Origin: a phage
Assembly (NCBI GenBank): GCA_024672275.1
Contig: GCA_024672275.1_4536.1
Reading direction: 5' to 3' (one strand)
DNA: 64,000 bases
Notes under the pieces: model-generated
Database searches by the model: none
Told to the model about the DNA's origin: nothing
What the model saw: the letters and a program-made list of their open reading frames with translations, nothing else
Shown: positions 5,343 to 13,029 of the stretch, piece by piece
Layout of the letters: each line of letters starts with the position of its first letter
Numbering within the stretch: position 1 is the first letter of the stretch
Position numbers and translations under genes: made by a program

Positions 5343-5627
5343 ATGAGTAAAGCTAACACCGTGCTAATGTTTTCCCTGATTAATGATCCCGCTTACTTGT
5401 CCAACATGACGCAGGACGGTAACACATTAACGGCAACATTCACCAATAAGCTTGACCGGGTGATCATCGTCTCACTGAAAACAGTTAGTAAAGGCTTTTA
5501 CTCGTTAGCTTATCATTGGATCACCGATACCGATGAGACAAGCCAGGACTATAGCGCCCCTTTCCCTGAATCAATGGCACGGGAGATCATCGCCGCCGTT
5601 GTAAATGATGGTTTGTTTACTGCATAA
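5343..5627 (+). CDS. hypothetical protein (94 aa)
   Basis: Internal ATG 5343 with RBS GAGGAT; track start 5313 lies inside the promoter hairpin. Confidence 0.55.
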   Translation: MSKANTVLMFSLINDPAYLSNMTQDGNTLTATFTNKLDRVIIVSLKTVSKGFYSLAYHWITDTDETSQDYSAPFPESMAREIIAAVVNDGLFTA

Positions 5628-5644
5628 AATAATTTAGAAAAAGG

Positions 5645-5701
5645 CTTGCAATCATTTTGAGATAGTGTATATTTAATTCATAGGGCGGCGGGAATAGTTC
5701 C
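5645..5701 (+). promoter_or_regulatory. sigma70-type promoter + GC hairpin cassette
   Basis: TTGCAA 5645-5650, N16, TATATT 5667-5672, hairpin GGGAA-TAG-TTCCC within GGGCGGCGGGAATAGTTCCC 5682-5701. Confidence 0.55.
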
Positions 5702-5725
5702 CAAAGCAAACGAGAGGATTACACG

Positions 5726-5845
5726 ATGAGCAAGTACACAGTAGAATACACGGTAGAAAATCCGGCAGTATCCGAAGGTAAAAAGATGACATTTGCCATC
5801 AGTATAATCGCTTTCGTTGTCACTATCTTATCAATCATCTTATAA
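5726..5845 (+). CDS. small hydrophobic peptide (39 aa)
   Basis: ATG 5726 with RBS GAGAGGA; C-terminal TM helix; below ORF-track cutoff. Confidence 0.45.
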   Translation: MSKYTVEYTVENPAVSEGKKMTFAISIIAFVVTILSIIL

Positions 5846-5855
5846 GGTACATACC

Positions 5856-6017
5856 ATGAAAACAGCAGACATTATCAAAGAGATCGCCCTTGCCGCTGGT
5901 GTTGAAGTCGAGGAAGTGATCGCGCTCAATCTTACAGAAAACGATCTGCGCAACTATGAAGCGGAAAGCGTGAAAGCAAGCGGCGCGGTCCTGGTATATG
6001 ATCCGGCTAACAAGTAA
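5856..6017 (+). CDS. hypothetical small protein (53 aa)
   Basis: Internal ATG 5856 of track ORF 5817..6017; follows stop of previous peptide. Confidence 0.45.
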   Translation: MKTADIIKEIALAAGVEVEEVIALNLTENDLRNYEAESVKASGAVLVYDPANK

Positions 6018-6026
6018 GGGGATAAC

Positions 6027-6137
6027 ATGAATCCGAAAGATATGCAAGCATGGAAAGGGTACGACGATCTAAGCGCCTTGCGCAATAAGTCAAGCCGTAA
6101 CTTTAGACGGTTGGAAGCAAAGAAAAAGAAAAAATAG
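6027..6137 (+). CDS. hypothetical small basic protein (36 aa)
   Basis: ATG 6027 with RBS AAGGGG; ends TAG immediately before next promoter. Confidence 0.4.
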   Translation: MNPKDMQAWKGYDDLSALRNKSSRNFRRLEAKKKKK

Positions 6138-6138
6138 T

Positions 6139-6196
6139 TTGACAAGTCCGCCTAGTCTGATAATATATATCTTGTAGGGCGGCAATGGTGCCGCTC
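6139..6196 (+). promoter_or_regulatory. sigma70-type promoter + GC hairpin cassette
   Basis: TTGACA 6139-6144, N16, TGn-TAATAT 6161-6166, exact 20-mer hairpin 6177-6196. Confidence 0.7.
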
Positions 6197-6215
6197 ACAA
6201 GAAGAGAGAAAAATT

Positions 6216-6500
6216 ATGAAAATCACAAAAAGCCTAACTAATTATGCAGCACGTCGCGGATTATGTTTAACCGTTGAAAACTTAGGGAAAGAAGACTTTT
6301 TGTGTTTTTGGGAGCTTGAAAACGATTGCGAGTGGATGTTTTCCTATTCTATCTGCGAAGATCAAAACGGTTGTTTGTTAACCTGGCGCGGTAATATCTA
6401 TTTACCGGAAGAAATTAAAGAAGAGTTACCAGGTACGATCATGACAGAGAGACAGCTTAAGGAAGTGATCAATTTTGTAGGGCAAAACATTAAAAAATAA
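6216..6500 (+). CDS. hypothetical protein (94 aa)
   Basis: ATG 6216 after cassette; ORF track. Confidence 0.6.
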   Translation: MKITKSLTNYAARRGLCLTVENLGKEDFLCFWELENDCEWMFSYSICEDQNGCLLTWRGNIYLPEEIKEELPGTIMTERQLKEVINFVGQNIKK

Positions 6501-6501
6501 T

Positions 6502-6564
6502 TTGACAGTAGGCAAACAACGTAGTAAAGTTTATTACATAGAGCGGCGGAATGGTCCACCGCTC
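6502..6564 (+). promoter_or_regulatory. sigma70-type promoter + GC hairpin cassette
   Basis: TTGACA 6502-6507, N17, TAAAGT 6525-6530, hairpin GAGCGGCGGAA-TGG-TCCACCGCTC 6541-6564. Confidence 0.65.
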
Positions 6565-6585
6565 ACAACAGAAGAGAAACAAATC

Positions 6586-6756
6586 ATGATCCCGACTATG
6601 TTTTATGTATCGCGCAAAGGTCACAATATTTTTTGGTCTGAAGATTTAAATGAAGCTATGACGTTTGCCCGTGATCGTGTTGCTATCGGTGGCGTTAACA
6701 TCACCGTAACCGATGAAAATGGCATTGAATACTATAACGGCGACGATGAAGAATAA
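6586..6756 (+). CDS. hypothetical small protein (56 aa)
   Basis: Internal ATG 6586 downstream of hairpin and AGAAGAGA RBS; track start 6502 is the TTG inside the -35 box. Confidence 0.55.
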   Translation: MIPTMFYVSRKGHNIFWSEDLNEAMTFARDRVAIGGVNITVTDENGIEYYNGDDEE

Positions 6757-6763
6757 TTAATGA

Positions 6764-6784
6764 GGCGGGGGAGTATTCCCCGCC
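6764..6784 (+). promoter_or_regulatory. GC hairpin of cassette type without recognisable promoter
   Basis: Hairpin GGCGGGGGAG-TAT-TCCCCGCC 20 nt upstream of ATG 6804; no -35/-10 found upstream. Confidence 0.45.
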
Positions 6785-6803
6785 GTCAATAAAGAGGTAA
6801 ATC

Positions 6804-7073
6804 ATGAAAATATCATTGGACGTTGCAATCAAGGCCATCGAGTCCGGTTACATCCTGGTAAAAGATGATAAGGCTAAAATAGTGCATCATGTTAACAAGG
6901 AAACAGGCGAAAGCATGATCACATATAAAGCCGCCTACTTTCTCCAATCAGTAGCAGATCCGCGCGTACAACGCCAGGTTACGGCGACTATTGCTAAAAA
7001 ATTATGTGCTTTACAGGGTGCAAGTTTTAACGAGATCGCCCCGTGTTTTGAGTGGTCAAGCTTGAAAAAATAA
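6804..7073 (+). CDS. hypothetical protein (89 aa)
   Basis: ATG 6804 with RBS AAAGAGG; ORF track. Confidence 0.6.
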   Translation: MKISLDVAIKAIESGYILVKDDKAKIVHHVNKETGESMITYKAAYFLQSVADPRVQRQVTATIAKKLCALQGASFNEIAPCFEWSSLKK

Positions 7074-9492: not shown

Positions 9493-9521
9493 GTTGACGA
9501 AAGTCAGCCTTTTTGTTATGC
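9493..9521 (+). promoter_or_regulatory. putative sigma70-type promoter followed by long structured leader
   Basis: TTGACG 9493-9498, N17, TATGCT 9516-9521; about 200-nt leader with GC-rich element GGGCGGCACTGGCAACGGGGGAGG before ATG 9729. Confidence 0.35.
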
Positions 9522-9728
9522 TTATTGAACGGGCGGCACTGGCAACGGGGGAGGTAATCACCGGAAGACCCCGCTATATATTGATAGCTAACATCTATCA
9601 AACAACAAAACATCAAAGAGATAAACTATCAAATCTTTACAATTCTACCTATTGACCAATAAATCACAACAGTTTAATATTGTTTTTAGAGGTTAAAATA
9701 TTCCCCAAACGAAAACAGGAAAAAGAAA

Positions 9729-9965
9729 ATGAAAGAAGTCATGATCCTCAAAAAATCACCTATTTTACGTGGCGGTTTTATCGCTTACTCTGATGATTTG
9801 TTAATTGCAACAGTTGCAAAAATACTAAAATCAGAAGATGACAGTAAAAACGGCGTTTATCGTATCTGTTTCACCCGTGGAAAATTACAAGGTAAGATCG
9901 CTTATGCCTTTGATTTACAAGATGTAAACGATAAAATATGCGCTGTTATTGATTATGCAAAATAG
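9729..9965 (+). CDS. hypothetical protein (78 aa)
   Basis: ATG 9729 with RBS ACAGGAAAAAG; ORF track. Confidence 0.55.
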   Translation: MKEVMILKKSPILRGGFIAYSDDLLIATVAKILKSEDDSKNGVYRICFTRGKLQGKIAYAFDLQDVNDKICAVIDYAK

Positions 9966-9977
9966 TTAATTTTCTTA

Positions 9978-10020
9978 TTGACACCGGATCACGCTTGCAT
10001 TATTATTTATCACGTAGGGC
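9978..10020 (+). promoter_or_regulatory. sigma70-type promoter with conserved box but no hairpin
   Basis: TTGACA 9978-9983, N17, TATTAT 10001-10006, conserved TTATCACGTAGGGC box retained but second hairpin arm absent. Confidence 0.6.
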
Positions 10021-10052
10021 AAATCATTTTAAACGGTAAACGAGGAATCACC

Positions 10053-10436
10053 ATGAGCAATATCATCAACCTGGCAGCGACTGTAAACGGTAAAGACTTT
10101 AACGGCGCTGTAGACCGTGATCCTATGTGGTGCTTATCAGTGTTTAAAGGCGACCTGGTTGAAGTTAGAACAACCGAAGGTTATAGCGACGATTATAAAT
10201 GCGAGATCCATTTACATAACTGGTACACGGGTAAAACTTATGCGCTGAATCACGCGTTTATCGGAAAAATCGAATATCGTGAGATGATCGACGAAGAAAC
10301 GGGGCAAGATTTTAGCGAAAACGTTTATATTCGTTCAGAAACATTGGCCGAACGTTTGATCGAGAAAATGAAAGCAAAAAATAAAATTAATTTATCTCAT
10401 TGGATTGATATAACAAACGATCCAGCTTATCAATAA
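10053..10436 (+). CDS. hypothetical protein (127 aa)
   Basis: Internal ATG 10053 with RBS ACGAGG; track start 9978 is the TTG of the -35 box. Confidence 0.6.
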   Translation: MSNIINLAATVNGKDFNGAVDRDPMWCLSVFKGDLVEVRTTEGYSDDYKCEIHLHNWYTGKTYALNHAFIGKIEYREMIDEETGQDFSENVYIRSETLAERLIEKMKAKNKINLSHWIDITNDPAYQ

Positions 10437-10450
10437 ATAACATTTCATAC

Positions 10451-10479
10451 CAGGGCGCACCAAGCGCCCTTTCTTTTTG
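10451..10479 (+). terminator. rho-independent terminator
   Basis: AGGGCGC-ACCAA-GCGCCCT + TTTCTTTTT; identical to 4745-4772; closes the + strand early-like array. Confidence 0.7.
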
Positions 10480-12057
10480 CCCGAACAATGTTGATAGCTT
10501 TCGCCTATGAAAAACCGACACAGAACAAAATTGAATAAATCGCGGTATCGAGCTAATCAACCATTAAACGAATAACCATACCTCCCAGGGTAACAGGCTG
10601 TTAGAGAGCCATTTATAGCGGTTAAAATCGATCAACAACCAACAACAAACCATCAAAAACACCCTTTTACCTCCTTTCTAGTGCAATGATAACCATTATC
10701 ATCTATACATGATTATATATGCAATATAAGTGCATAACTATAATGTTGATAATAGTTCGCAACAACTAACTAACCAACAACCTAAAACAATAAGCAAACT
10801 AATTATAATCAAAGGAATAATAGCAAGATGATTGATAACGACAAACAATCAAACCATGATGAATACTAAGCAAGATAACGATAACACGACAAAACAACCA
10901 ACTAACGAACAATAACAAACGAAATCATTAAAATAATAACTATTGCCATAATAGTGACTGAATGAATCATTACAAAACGAATCATTCCCAAGATCATCAT
11001 TAGCACGCTATGCCGGACACATAGCGAGCTAATAATAAGCCAACTACACCCCAACAATCATAACCATCGGTGATGGTTATTTCTTGTTACTGCGTAGCTT
11101 GCAATAATTGCAAGCGTAATGACGCTTACACTTATTGCGCTGGCTTATTATTAGCATTATATGTAATTACCAAGATCATAACATTAGCGCAATAACAATA
11201 ATCATTGTAATTGTTACAAGATGAGATTATTAGCATGGCAATAATTATTGGGGGGCAATGGGAGGATGATTATCATCATTCCGATACATTGCACACTATG
11301 CACATAATAGAATAAAAGTCAATAATTTTGGGGCGAAATGTTACCGCCACGGGCGGGAATGTTGAGCACTAAGAAAAGAGATAAACCTTAATCATGGGGG
11401 CGTAAATATCCGAGGATTGCCAACGGCGATCCGGTAGGATGTTGAGCAAGTTTTCTTAAACGTAAATAAAATCAGAAAATTCTTGATTTATTTTAGTTTT
11501 TATGTTAATAAACGTTTAAATAATAATCATTCTCATATGAATAATAGTCCGTCTGTCATGCGCGGGATCAGTTGACATTGTTCCGTCATATGATGAAGTT
11601 GCCAAACCATTGATAAATAAGCGTTTGTGTGATTTATAATCAAGTGGCCCACCTTGTCGCTATGTTGGCATGAGCCTTGCATAAGTCATTGAATACGAAT
11701 GATAATTATTCTCATTCGCATGATATTTGGGAATTGTCGCTGCGTGGACCTGACGGCCCGAAAATTCGCGTTAAGCACTTCTTACGTATGCGCCATGATT
11801 TTTGCCATATCATATTGATTCTATTAGATATTCTTGCCATGATTGCCATGAAACAGGGTGTGTCGAAATAATCTCTCCCCGTAGATATTTTGGGTTACTT
11901 TTTATACAAGAGTGGGGTGTCAAAAATAATCGATATATATGGGATAATTAATAGGAATCCCCTATGGTAATTCGATTGTAATTGCCGAAGATTGATCGTA
12001 TGATGTTGGTGATTGATGATTGCCATGAAAGATGGCTAACGATGAGAGGAGATTGTC
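10480..12057. other. ORF-free, strand-skewed, repeat-rich spacer between gene modules
   Basis: No credible ORF; 10600-11000 is A+C-rich with CAACAA/AAC repeats; ATTAGC/AATAAT repeats 10980-11260; direct repeats GGAATGTTGAGCA (11358, 11428), TTGCCATGAAA and GTGTC(G/A)AAA..AATC (11838-11870, 11913-12030). Confidence 0.5.
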
Positions 12058-12402
12058 ATGCAAGAGAGTAAAAATGTTCCCTTGAGTAGCTTACGTCTAA
12101 TGAAGTTTTACAAAGCTTGGCTTGCTGGTGAGGTAGAAGGTCACACAACGAGTGGTTTGTGCATATGTCTGATTAAGTATGTAGAGGGAACATACCCTGA
12201 TGAACTGTTACCTCGTCTACAACAGGAGATGAAATCACAGTTTATTAGTGCAGGATTGGATTACAATTTCCCGTTTAATGAAGGTGGTTATGAAGAATAC
12301 ACCTTCGAACATAAAAAACTTATTTGCCATAAAAACAAACATCGTATACAATGGGTGCTAGATAGAATTCAGGATTACGAAGGAGAGAAAAATGACAAAT
12401 AG
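12058..12402 (+). CDS. paralog family member 1 (FY..W / GLC.CL / PF / WV.DR motifs), 114 aa
   Basis: RBS GAGAGGAG + ATG; shares conserved motif set with 12392, 17031, 20375, 23213, 24518. Confidence 0.65.
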   Translation: MQESKNVPLSSLRLMKFYKAWLAGEVEGHTTSGLCICLIKYVEGTYPDELLPRLQQEMKSQFISAGLDYNFPFNEGGYEEYTFEHKKLICHKNKHRIQWVLDRIQDYEGEKNDK

Positions 12403-12760
12403 TATTCCGTTGAGCAGTGCAACATTGCTTCGCTTCTATAAAGCATGGATTGCCAACTATCCTGCAATGAATCGCACAACGAGTGGCTTATGTGGTTGTC
12501 TGGTAGATTATGTAAATGATTTTGTTGGTGAGACAACTAGAGAAGAAGATAGAAGATGGCGGGATAGTTTGTTAGACCGTTTGAAATATGAAATGAGGAA
12601 ACAATTTACATGTGCAGGGCTGGACTACAATCTTCCGTTCAATGCAGATTGCATGGATTACCTTTCAGAGTGTATAAACTTGGCGTGTCATACCAACACG
12701 TTACGTCTTCAATGGGTGAAAGATCGCATTGAAGATGCAAATAATTCTTGCATTGAATAA
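12392..12760 (+). CDS. paralog family member 2, 122 aa
   Basis: RBS GAAGGAGAG + ATG overlapping previous gene; motifs LRFYKAW, GLCGCL, PFN, LQWVKDR. Confidence 0.65.
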   Translation: MTNSIPLSSATLLRFYKAWIANYPAMNRTTSGLCGCLVDYVNDFVGETTREEDRRWRDSLLDRLKYEMRKQFTCAGLDYNLPFNADCMDYLSECINLACHTNTLRLQWVKDRIEDANNSCIE

Positions 12761-12819
12761 AAATGTCTGTATGATAGTTTGCATACCGCGCATAACAGAT
12801 AGCCAATGAGGAGATTGAA

Positions 12820-13029
12820 ATGTCAAATATGAAAACTGTATCCTTGTATTTAGCTAACACTGATCGTGTGCACACCCTTGCTAATGCAAGTCGTGTACTC
12901 GTGCAGTTCCGAAACTTAGCACCGTCCGTTGTGACAGGCAGTGAAACGTGTGTGATCGATTTCATCAATGAATATTTCCACGGGAATCCTGTTGCTCGTC
13001 ACTTCGTGGAGAATATGAAAGATGCATAA
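12820..13029 (+). CDS. hypothetical protein (69 aa)
   Basis: RBS GAGGAG + ATG; ORF track. Confidence 0.5.
   Translation: MSNMKTVSLYLANTDRVHTLANASRVLVQFRNLAPSVVTGSETCVIDFINEYFHGNPVARHFVENMKDA

Follow-up and report, generated by a model that had tools for sequence, protein, structure and literature searches.

A gene-free region of a phAPEC8-like phage genome as the probable genome-end region, with a short direct terminal repeat

The concatemer junction of phage T7 carries a 160-bp terminal repeat, and in the cosB site of phage lambda the IHF site I1 lies between the terminase small-subunit sites R3 and R2. Outside T7, there is little understanding of how terminases of myoviruses with short direct terminal repeats (DTRs) choose their two cut sites and how the repeat comes to be duplicated. 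Genomes of the Stephanstirmvirinae are described as ones that 'terminate with direct terminal repeats' (PMC12695924). Within this group, phi92 (FR775895.2) is annotated with a DTR of 343 bp (DTR-L 1-343, DTR-R 148270-148612), a 342-bp DTR was obtained for BME3 by PhageTerm (PMC12210895), and Korf et al. reported a 328-bp terminal repeat for Schickermooser, placing the ends where most reads 'ended abruptly' (PMC6563267). In the V5-like phage LL12 a 459-bp redundancy is 'located in a noncoding region' (PMC6658697), and the map of rV5 shows a 'non-coding' box (PMC3606486). Here we describe a gene-free region at positions 10480-12057 of a 64,000-nt stretch of phage DNA (contig GCA_024672275.1_4536.1 of assembly GCA_024672275.1; this whole stretch is called the window below). 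Given how it aligns with the ends of related genomes, the region is very probably the genome-end region of a phAPEC8-like myovirus in its concatemer-junction form, with the DTR collapsed to a single copy.

The window comes from a Phapecoctavirus, that is, a phAPEC8-like myovirus of the Stephanstirmvirinae: the region matches 97 phage records, 46 of which cover at least 80% of it, and the organisms named in these records are overwhelmingly phAPEC8-like coliphages. Several of the linear records break inside the query and have a second match at their other end. Furthermore, we found that: (i) the Schickermooser record carries an exact 329-bp repeat at both ends, 97.7% identical to 11445-11773; (ii) the BI-EHEC record carries an exact 328-bp repeat at both ends, 96.3% identical to the same interval; (iii) in Mt1B1_P17 and WPEC1 the end repeats are likewise exact, measure 328 bp and show identical boundary sequences; (iv) the BME3 record ends in ...GAAAATCGCGTT (...CGCGTT), and GTTG/AGCC (the slash marks a DTR boundary here and below) lies exactly 342 nt upstream; and (v) the last letters of the Ro121lw record are ...GGGAATGTTG (...AATGTTG). 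Both boundaries are intact in the window, as ATGTTG/AGCA on the left and CGCGTTA/AGCAC on the right, and are unique to the region. The layout of phi92 is that of the window as well: gp248 (a homolog of the gene at 10054-10436), a terminator, approximately 1.1 kb of non-coding DNA, the DTR, a leader of approximately 350 nt and gene 1. These comparisons support the presence of a complete short DTR, and hence of both physical genome ends, inside the region at 11445-11772/3. The edge of a terminal repeat and a packaging region had been among the candidate roles listed in the initial annotation, which also proposed comparison with related phages; that comparison bears out the guess in a stronger form than was proposed. 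Two kinds of candidate termini were rejected or left out of account. The start of the ESCO13 record at approximately 10514 is the arbitrary start of a circular record, and the breaks in the dw-ec and vB_EcoM_01 matches near 11773 are not record ends and were not counted as evidence.

On this assignment the region would fall into three parts: 10480-11444 would be a tail at the right end, 11445-11772/3 the DTR, and 11774-12057 the leader of the left-end operon. It would also account for a switch in gene organization that the initial annotation had noticed at this place and that our counts confirm. To the left, approximately 19 strong sigma70-like sites lie on the + strand in 10 kb, the last of them at 9978 (a few are alternative spacings of one promoter), and to the right the genes overlap or abut. 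The two modules are differently organized because they are the right and left arms of a linear genome. Coordinates of the features discussed below are collected in Table 1.

Table 1. Features of the gene-free region and its borders, in window positions (MFE, minimum free energy)
Feature	Position	Strand	Description
Intrinsic terminator of the last right-arm gene (10054-10436)	10452-10478	+	7-pair stem (6 G-C), then TTCTTTTT
Tail segment 1, conserved non-coding block	10480-10680		Includes AATAAATCGCGGTATCGAGCTAATCAA, common to phi92
Box T1	10682-10700		7-1-7 core TGATAACCATTATCA at 10687-10701; 15/19 to the Fur consensus; invariant in 10 relatives
Palindrome ATGCAATATAAGTGCAT	10719-10735		
Box T2	10740-10758		Weaker
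G-poor, A/C-rich stretch	10760-10995	+	Almost unstructured as + strand RNA; MFE -6.6 kcal/mol per 160 nt at 10751
Structured element, 165 nt, single copy	10997-11159	-	Low MFE, covariation, covariance model
H1	11006-11012/11020-11026		
P1	11028-11042/11141-11155		Long-range stem
H2	11060-11068/11072-11080		
H3	11097-11115		Sequence-invariant palindrome
Iteron-like ATTATTAGC repeats	11147-11155, 11226-11234	+	First copy is also the P1 3' arm; inverted copy at 11028-11036
Two tandem modules	11330-11368, 11396-11448	+	G-run + hairpin + ATGTTGAGCA
Predicted left DTR boundary	11444/11445		GGATGTTG/AGCAAG (GTTG/AGCA)
Predicted DTR, 328/329 bp	11445-11773		Homology to end repeats of relatives
DTR box A, Fur-box-like	11516-11534		14/19; ~72 bp into the DTR
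IHF-consensus site TATCAATGGTTTG	11603-11615	-	WATCAANNNNTTR match at the DTR midpoint
DTR box B, Fur-box-like	11695-11719		14-15/19; ~250 bp into the DTR, within block TAAGTCATTGAAT...CATGATATTTGGG
Predicted right DTR boundary	11772/11773		TTCGCGTTA/AGCAC (CGCGTT(A)/AGCAC)
phi92 boundaries			Left TTTGTTG/AGCC; right ATCGCGTTA/AGCAC
Leader of the left-end operon	11774-12057	+	sigma70-like promoter 11843-11872 (TTGCCA-18-AATAAT)

The absence of genes from the region was confirmed. With a threshold of 70 amino acids, 10437-12057 (1621 nt) is the longest stretch of the window free of open reading frames (ORFs), the next longest being 869 and 800 nt; in the ORF list, the largest frame between the stop codon at 10436 and the ATG at 12058 encodes 64 amino acids from a TTG start. 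A gene-free gap is kept at 1.5-2.0 kb in all Stephanstirmvirinae genomes examined and measures 2.6 kb in rV5, and in the phAPEC8 record the equivalent gap (5512-7022) bears no annotation. The compositional skew noted in the initial annotation is real in direction: GC skew runs from -0.21 to -0.375 across 10400 to approximately 11100 and is positive beyond, and the + strand is G-poor. The description of 10600-11000 as almost devoid of G was overstated, as G makes up 10.5% of that interval (A 46%, C 20%, T 23%; C/G 1.9). The listed repeats also exist. The GGAATGTTGAGCA/GGATGTTGAGCA pair is borne out by ATGTTGAGCA, found at 11359 and 11439, and neither this motif nor CGCGTTAAGCAC (11767) has a copy elsewhere in the 64 kb; GTGTCGAAATAATC and GTGTCAAAAATAATC can be read straight from the region. 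Most other two-copy direct or inverted repeats resemble chance matches in AT-rich DNA and were set aside, and the only tandem repeats found in the region were three weak short arrays. The region has no DnaA box, no Chi site and no enrichment of GATC, and the Rfam 15 covariance models gave no match at E <= 1 on either strand of 9500-13000. Neither a tRNA nor a tmRNA was found anywhere in the window, although phAPEC8-like genomes are reported to have 10-13 tRNAs; the tRNA cluster must therefore lie outside the window.

Both DTR boundaries carry the same motif, GTTR/AGC, which is kept between genera whose flanking sequences have diverged. The same boundary pair is present in muut, KP13-26, FKP3, KP2025, arall, ECGD1 and two metagenome contigs, and in 12 of 14 genomes it implies a DTR length of 328-343 bp. 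The other two genomes come out at 352 bp (L111) and 411 bp (L023); in the latter the proximal copy of the motif is probably a variant that our search pattern missed. To the left of the DTR the window has two tandem modules, each made of a G-run, a hairpin of variable sequence and (A)TGTTGAGC. One such module is present in Schickermooser, BI-EHEC, phAPEC8 and others, and two in ECML-183-2, TSP7_1, tuntematon and WPEC1 as in the window; counting copies of the left motif alone, muut has 2 and KP13-26 has 3. The hairpin sequences differ between phages. The proximal copy of the motif is the left end of the DTR, and the distal copy would cut at 11364/11365. We considered the distal ATGTTGAGCA as the real left end and rejected it: WPEC1, which also has two modules, uses the DTR-proximal copy, so the distal copy in the window would be a spare. 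In comparison with the DTRs of phi92, Schickermooser (328 bp) and BME3 (342 bp), which share the locus, gene order, boundary sequences and length class, nothing essential differs here, apart from the extra module of approximately 80 bp (hairpin plus ATGTTGAGCA) that the window has in common with WPEC1, tuntematon and TSP7_1.

In the literature that we could search, only the length of such repeats is reported and we found their internal anatomy described nowhere. Over five lineages the footprint of the DTR reads, in order: TGTTG/AGC; TCTTGATTT; box A; TGCCAAnCCATTGAT; TAAGTYATTGAAT, box B and CATTGATATTTG; and GAAAATYCGCGTTA/AGCA. The conserved block TGCCAAnCCATTGAT contains the IHF-consensus site, the only match to WATCAANNNNTTR in the region (there are 11 in the 64 kb). 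In all 14 genomes the DTR has exactly one such site, in one orientation and with its core kept, and in 12 of them it falls 0.5-5 bp from the DTR midpoint. Boxes A and B, together with the two boxes of the tail, are 7-1-7 palindromes; the consensus of 28 sites is TGA(T/G)AATnATT(C/A)TCA. The site homologous to box A scores 17/19 in phi92, muut, arall and ECGD1, where it has a perfect 7-1-7 core (TGATAATCATTATCA), and the site homologous to box B scores 17/19 in phiWec181 and L111. The positions of the boxes are kept across genera, with different boxes reaching 17/19 in different lineages. In 500 composition-matched Markov simulations, 0.30 sites scoring at least 14/19 to the Fur box (GATAATGATAATCATTATC) were expected in the region and 0.078 at 15/19; it has 7 and 3, respectively. 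The phage consensus is the Fur core (TGATAATnATTATCA) except for one degenerate position per half-site, and the half-site that the phages prefer, TGAGAAT/ATTCTCA (here the slash separates the two halves), departs from the Fur optimum at one position. The phage sites are also set apart from E. coli Fur boxes by their location, which is a terminal repeat and tail instead of the upstream regions of iron genes. Judged by eye, the hexamers that overlap box B are only weakly promoter-like, and no sigma70 site of at least 10/12 overlaps any box. We found no literature on Fur boxes in phage termini. The protein that reads these boxes could be host Fur or a dimeric protein of the phage.

In a plausible scenario that fits these features, replicative concatemers would be recognized at this region by the terminase, which would cut them at both GTTR/AGC motifs. 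The repeat between the cuts would be duplicated by DNA synthesis, so that each of the neighbouring genomes receives a copy, as in the logic of T7. IHF bound at the midpoint may bend the DTR and bring the two cut motifs together, by analogy with lambda cosB, and the palindromic boxes, read by Fur or by a phage dimer, may serve as architectural or regulatory sites. The likeness to T7 extends to a short, exact and non-permuted repeat, non-coding DNA on the left of that repeat where the genome has its right end, a required duplication of the repeat during concatemer processing, and promoters just inside the left end that point inward. There is no sequence similarity to T7, and what is found here is a putative cut motif shared by the boundaries, a central IHF-consensus site and palindromic boxes. 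The hairpin and CJ-pause steps of T7 have no demonstrated counterpart, and the promoters are host-type because this phage, unlike T7, does not have an RNA polymerase of its own. With lambda cosB the region shares an IHF consensus flanked by repeated boxes next to terminase cut sites (predicted ones here), which suggests, by analogy, a bend-assisted assembly of the terminase. Lambda differs in having 12-nt cohesive ends at a single cosN, whereas here two predicted cut sites approximately 328 bp apart delimit a repeat that is duplicated.

The order of elements in the tail is kept across the subfamily: terminator, conserved block, a box-palindrome-box unit, the G-poor stretch, the structured element, the ATTATTAGC repeats, 1-3 modules and then the DTR. 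The terminator is annotated in phAPEC8 and Schickermooser and is 93-100% conserved in 10 relatives, even in those with a different upstream gene. The conserved block (10480-10680) has a mean pairwise identity of 93% among the 10 relatives, and the unit that follows it, box-ATGCA(N6-7)TGCAT-box with a spacing of 58 bp, is also found in phi92, muut and KP13-26. The G-poor stretch is approximately 230-400 nt long across the subfamily; phi92 (4-7% G), muut, KP13-26 and rV5 are depleted of G there too, although its sequences do not align between genera. The three copies of ATTATTAGC (11147 and 11226 on the + strand, 11036 on the - strand) occur only in this region of the 64 kb and are irregularly spaced, a degenerate ATTAGC lies at 11183, and KP13-26 has approximately 6 copies at the equivalent place. 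No strong sigma70 promoter (at least 10/12) was found on either strand of 10007-11843, and weaker hits, of which there are 24 against 13.7 +/- 3.4 expected, are not conserved between genera. In the comparison with phiWec181, identity falls from approximately 90% (10453-11160) to approximately 62-67% (11161-12057), the drop coinciding with the 3' arm of P1, and approximately 11160 is likely to be a recombination boundary.

The most structured part of the tail is the 165-nt element at 10997-11159, which is 98-100% identical within the genus. Its MFE z-score is -6.5 on the + strand and -8.6 on the - strand. Using RNAalifold on 15 distinct sequences from at least 4 lineages, we found double compensatory changes in 13 of 39 consensus pairs, and the 15-bp stem P1 exists in five sequence versions, all perfectly complementary. 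Overall 98.6% of cells pair, and the covariation score of 0.243 compares with 0.075 +/- 0.010 in shuffles (reached in 0 of 500) and with at most 0.043 when partners are slid. On the + strand every non-canonical cell is C.A or A.C, and each of these corresponds to G.U on the - strand. The consensus for the - strand comprises 49 pairs; with G.U allowed, a single A.A cell is the only one left unpaired. This favors the G/T-rich - strand as the one that folds, on the strength of approximately 4-6 independent events. A covariance model found one copy per genome at 177 bits and none in rV5. When the H3 palindrome was used to scan metagenomes, 113 stretches were retrieved, of which only 6 were true relatives and the rest chance 19-mers; IMG/VR gave 3. 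H2 was considered as a general intrinsic terminator and rejected, as its T-run is missing in several lineages.

We favor the possibility that the tail is a cis-acting DNA element for packaging recognition, replication initiation or both, and we rank a role at the DNA level above an RNA gene because 10007-11843 has no sigma70 site of at least 10/12 and the covariation would fit single-stranded DNA equally well. That the tail is chiefly a replication origin, which could coexist with the DTR, is a tentative reading that we regard as possible but not probable. Here an initiator or host factors would recognize the ATTATTAGC iterons and the boxes, unwinding would take place in the G-poor stretch, and the minus-strand structure would be a single-strand initiation or priming signal. 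In T7, secondary origins adjoin the genome ends. The confinement of ATTATTAGC to the region and its greater number in KP13-26 are consistent with this, as are an AT-rich, strand-asymmetric stretch whose composition is kept across genera, a structure whose best fold is that of the minus strand, which is G/T-rich and can form G.U or G.T pairs, and the want of a strong promoter from which an RNA would be made. Against an origin stand the absence of DnaA boxes, the irregular spacing of the iterons with only 2-3 copies in this genus, and the lack of an adjacent initiator gene; we also counted against it that in rV5 GC skew followed only the direction of transcription (PMC3606486). We found no assigned origin for these phages in the literature. 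It is also conceivable, though unlikely, that the tail encodes a structured non-coding RNA, made up of the 165-nt element with or without the unstructured stretch. It would be either a minus-strand transcript or a plus-strand one that begins at the box-palindrome-box unit. Strong covariation in three helices, the very low MFE z-scores, the near-identity of the element within the genus and the fact that every non-Watson-Crick cell is G.U on the minus strand all argue for such an RNA. On the other side there is no Rfam family and no sigma70 promoter of the strength given above on either strand, the weaker candidates are not conserved, H2 is terminator-like only in some lineages, and covariation supports pairing in single-stranded DNA or a cruciform as well as in RNA, with the strand preference drawn from the few events noted earlier. 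A search of the literature for a transcriptome from the Stephanstirmvirinae found none.

A third reading, which we consider doubtful, makes the G-poor stretch and the hairpins downstream of it a transcription insulator, that is, a Rho-loading (rut-like) zone with pause hairpins that, on concatemers, would halt read-through from the heavily transcribed right arm short of the packaging site and the left-end operon. The stretch has a C/G ratio of 1.9 over 400 nt and is essentially unstructured as + strand RNA, stable hairpins follow directly, and the approximately 19 strong promoter-like sites upstream all point toward it; an excess of C over G is found in phi92, KP13-26 and rV5 as well. In terms of sequence, then, the region has what is expected of a Rho-dependent terminator (C>G, at least 80 unstructured nt, then a hairpin). 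However, a good intrinsic terminator already precedes the stretch, which is A-rich rather than C-rich in this genus, and a pause site needs neither a covarying multi-helix structure of 49 pairs nor iterons. The origin, non-coding RNA and insulator readings are all live and are compatible with one another. Very improbable, by contrast, is the proposal that Hfq is sequestered by an ARN-repeat RNA made from the A/C-rich stretch. The initial annotation had likened the stretch to Hfq-bound sequences from its AAC/CAA-rich composition, and nothing that we found speaks for it beyond that composition: the promoter scan gave no evidence of transcription, the best run of CAACAA, at 10633-10660, precedes the box unit, and the AAC/CAA pattern is lost in phi92, where the stretch is A/T-rich and only G depletion is common to both. 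Scarcely credible, finally, is the idea of coding DNA here, whether decayed or frameshifted, or of real small genes on the minus strand. Several GenBank records would have it so, since ETEC-TG, BI-EHEC, WPEC1 and FKP3 annotate 5-8 small, mostly minus-strand coding sequences over the tail and DTR, and a 32-amino-acid minus-strand ORF (10564-10662) is preceded by a perfect AAAGGAGGT. A frameshifted long ORF was one of the findings that the initial annotation named as capable of refuting it. We translated 17 small ORFs from both strands across 10 relatives; none behaves as a gene and none is conserved. The 32-amino-acid ORF has an internal stop in 6 of the 10, and the others are broken by stops, frameshifts or indels, or are open on both strands only by virtue of near-invariant DNA. 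The curated records of phAPEC8, Schickermooser, phi92 and Mt1B1_P17 show an empty gap. The small coding sequences in the four records are probably over-predictions by gene callers.

Returning to the region as the genome end of this phage, several points weigh against it or narrow its reach. The termini are read across from relatives that are 96-98% identical, and some of the 'ends' in GenBank could be assembly conventions; the read ends of Korf et al., the PhageTerm result for BME3 and the annotation of phi92 are independent of one another. The right boundary of the DTR is ambiguous by 1 nt between records. The core GTTRAGCM is short, with 6 copies on the + strand of the 64 kb, 3 of them outside the region. 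The role of the tail is divided between packaging, origin and RNA. Lastly, rV5 does not have any of these motifs, so nothing here generalizes beyond the Stephanstirmvirinae. The gap of rV5, a member of the Vequintavirinae (NC_011041, 104013-106618), does resemble the region in being free of genes over 2.6 kb and in that very stable structures come after an unstructured stretch rich in C and poor in G (C 34%, G 10%). It differs in that its flanking genes are convergent, and neither the GTTR/AGC pair nor ATTATTAGC occurs in it; Fur-like boxes are not enriched there, and the structure model finds no match. As judged from such comparisons, the architecture of the rV5 gap is analogous and not homologous to that of the region. 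The central finding is itself an ordinary one, since a non-coding region with a terminal repeat has already been reported for close relatives.

We also made several observations on the sequences that flank the DTR and on the relatives used here. The left-end leader has a conserved block at 11915-11955 and a ribosome-binding GAGGAG just upstream of the ATG at 12058; the gene that starts there (12058-12402) corresponds to gene 1 of the linear Schickermooser record. Two copies of ATGATTGCCATGAAA lie 177 bp apart at 11839-11853 and 12016-12030, and TTGCCATGA is present in tandem at 11834-11851. The second copy of ATGATTGCCATGAAA is just upstream of the ribosome-binding site of gene 1 and has a near-identical counterpart in the KP13-26 leader; this repeat may be a regulatory operator. 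On the other side, the last right-arm gene (10054-10436) is an allele of phi92 gp248 ('Gp30.8-like') with approximately 95% nucleotide identity to phi92 over its 3' end. The allele is also present in ECML-183-2 and TSP7_1, and in phAPEC8, Schickermooser and BI-EHEC the slot is filled by an unrelated gene of 139 amino acids. The slot before the region is thus a site of mosaic gene swapping at the right end of the genome, with the terminator alone common to both versions.

Further to the left, the 20-nt sequence GTAGGGCGGCAATGGTGCCG occurs on the + strand in 7 exact copies and 3 variants (274, 1518, 3263, 4119, 4551, 5302, 6174, 7909, 8181 and 9242). It is annotated in phAPEC8 as the 'PHIRE promoter', a motif that is absent from the region. 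The sequence forms a hairpin (GGCGGCA-ATGG-TGCCGCC) and, in the phAPEC8 context and at several of the window copies, lies a few nt downstream of the -10 element of a strong sigma70-like promoter. A conserved stem-loop in the 5' leaders of early (right-arm) transcripts seems a better description of it than a promoter. Among the relatives, WPEC1 (PV659873.1, 161,280 bp) and WPEC2 (PV691511.1) exceed the other members of the genus, which measure 145-152 kb, by approximately 10 kb and have the same 328-bp DTR. Two unannotated records bear the names 'Campylobacter phage B15' and 'Campylobacter phage C3' (MG065650.1 and MG065656.1); B15 matches the region at 96.7-98.9% identity, and C3 is about as similar to it as phi92-like coliphages are. 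The hosts given for both records look doubtful.

Many records of Phapecoctavirus and Justusliebigvirus are circularly permuted or carry spurious small coding sequences over the region. As the pair ATGTTG/AGC ... CGCGTT(A)/AGCAC is spaced 328-343 bp apart in most genomes, the sequence by itself suffices to locate the true ends. Four features appear to be undescribed, to judge from the literature that could be searched: the putative cut motif shared by both boundaries, the IHF-consensus site at the midpoint, the Fur-like palindromes at kept positions and the covarying 165-nt element. They amount to concrete hypotheses open to mutational analysis in coliphages that are used in therapy (phAPEC8, phi92 and the phi92-like phages of the BASEL collection). 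Taken together they also allow a bolder reading, which we offer as a speculation with the odds against it. The DTR may be a nucleoprotein hairpin built with host factors, in which IHF at the midpoint joins both copies of GTTR/AGC for a joint cut by the terminase and Fur is recruited by the boxes, and the 165-nt element may be a new class of structured signal, either a minus-strand RNA or single-stranded DNA, that is needed for packaging or replication in the Stephanstirmvirinae. If this were so, Fur would tie the formation of genome ends, or early transcription from the left end, to the iron status of the host, or would itself be titrated as phage genomes multiply.

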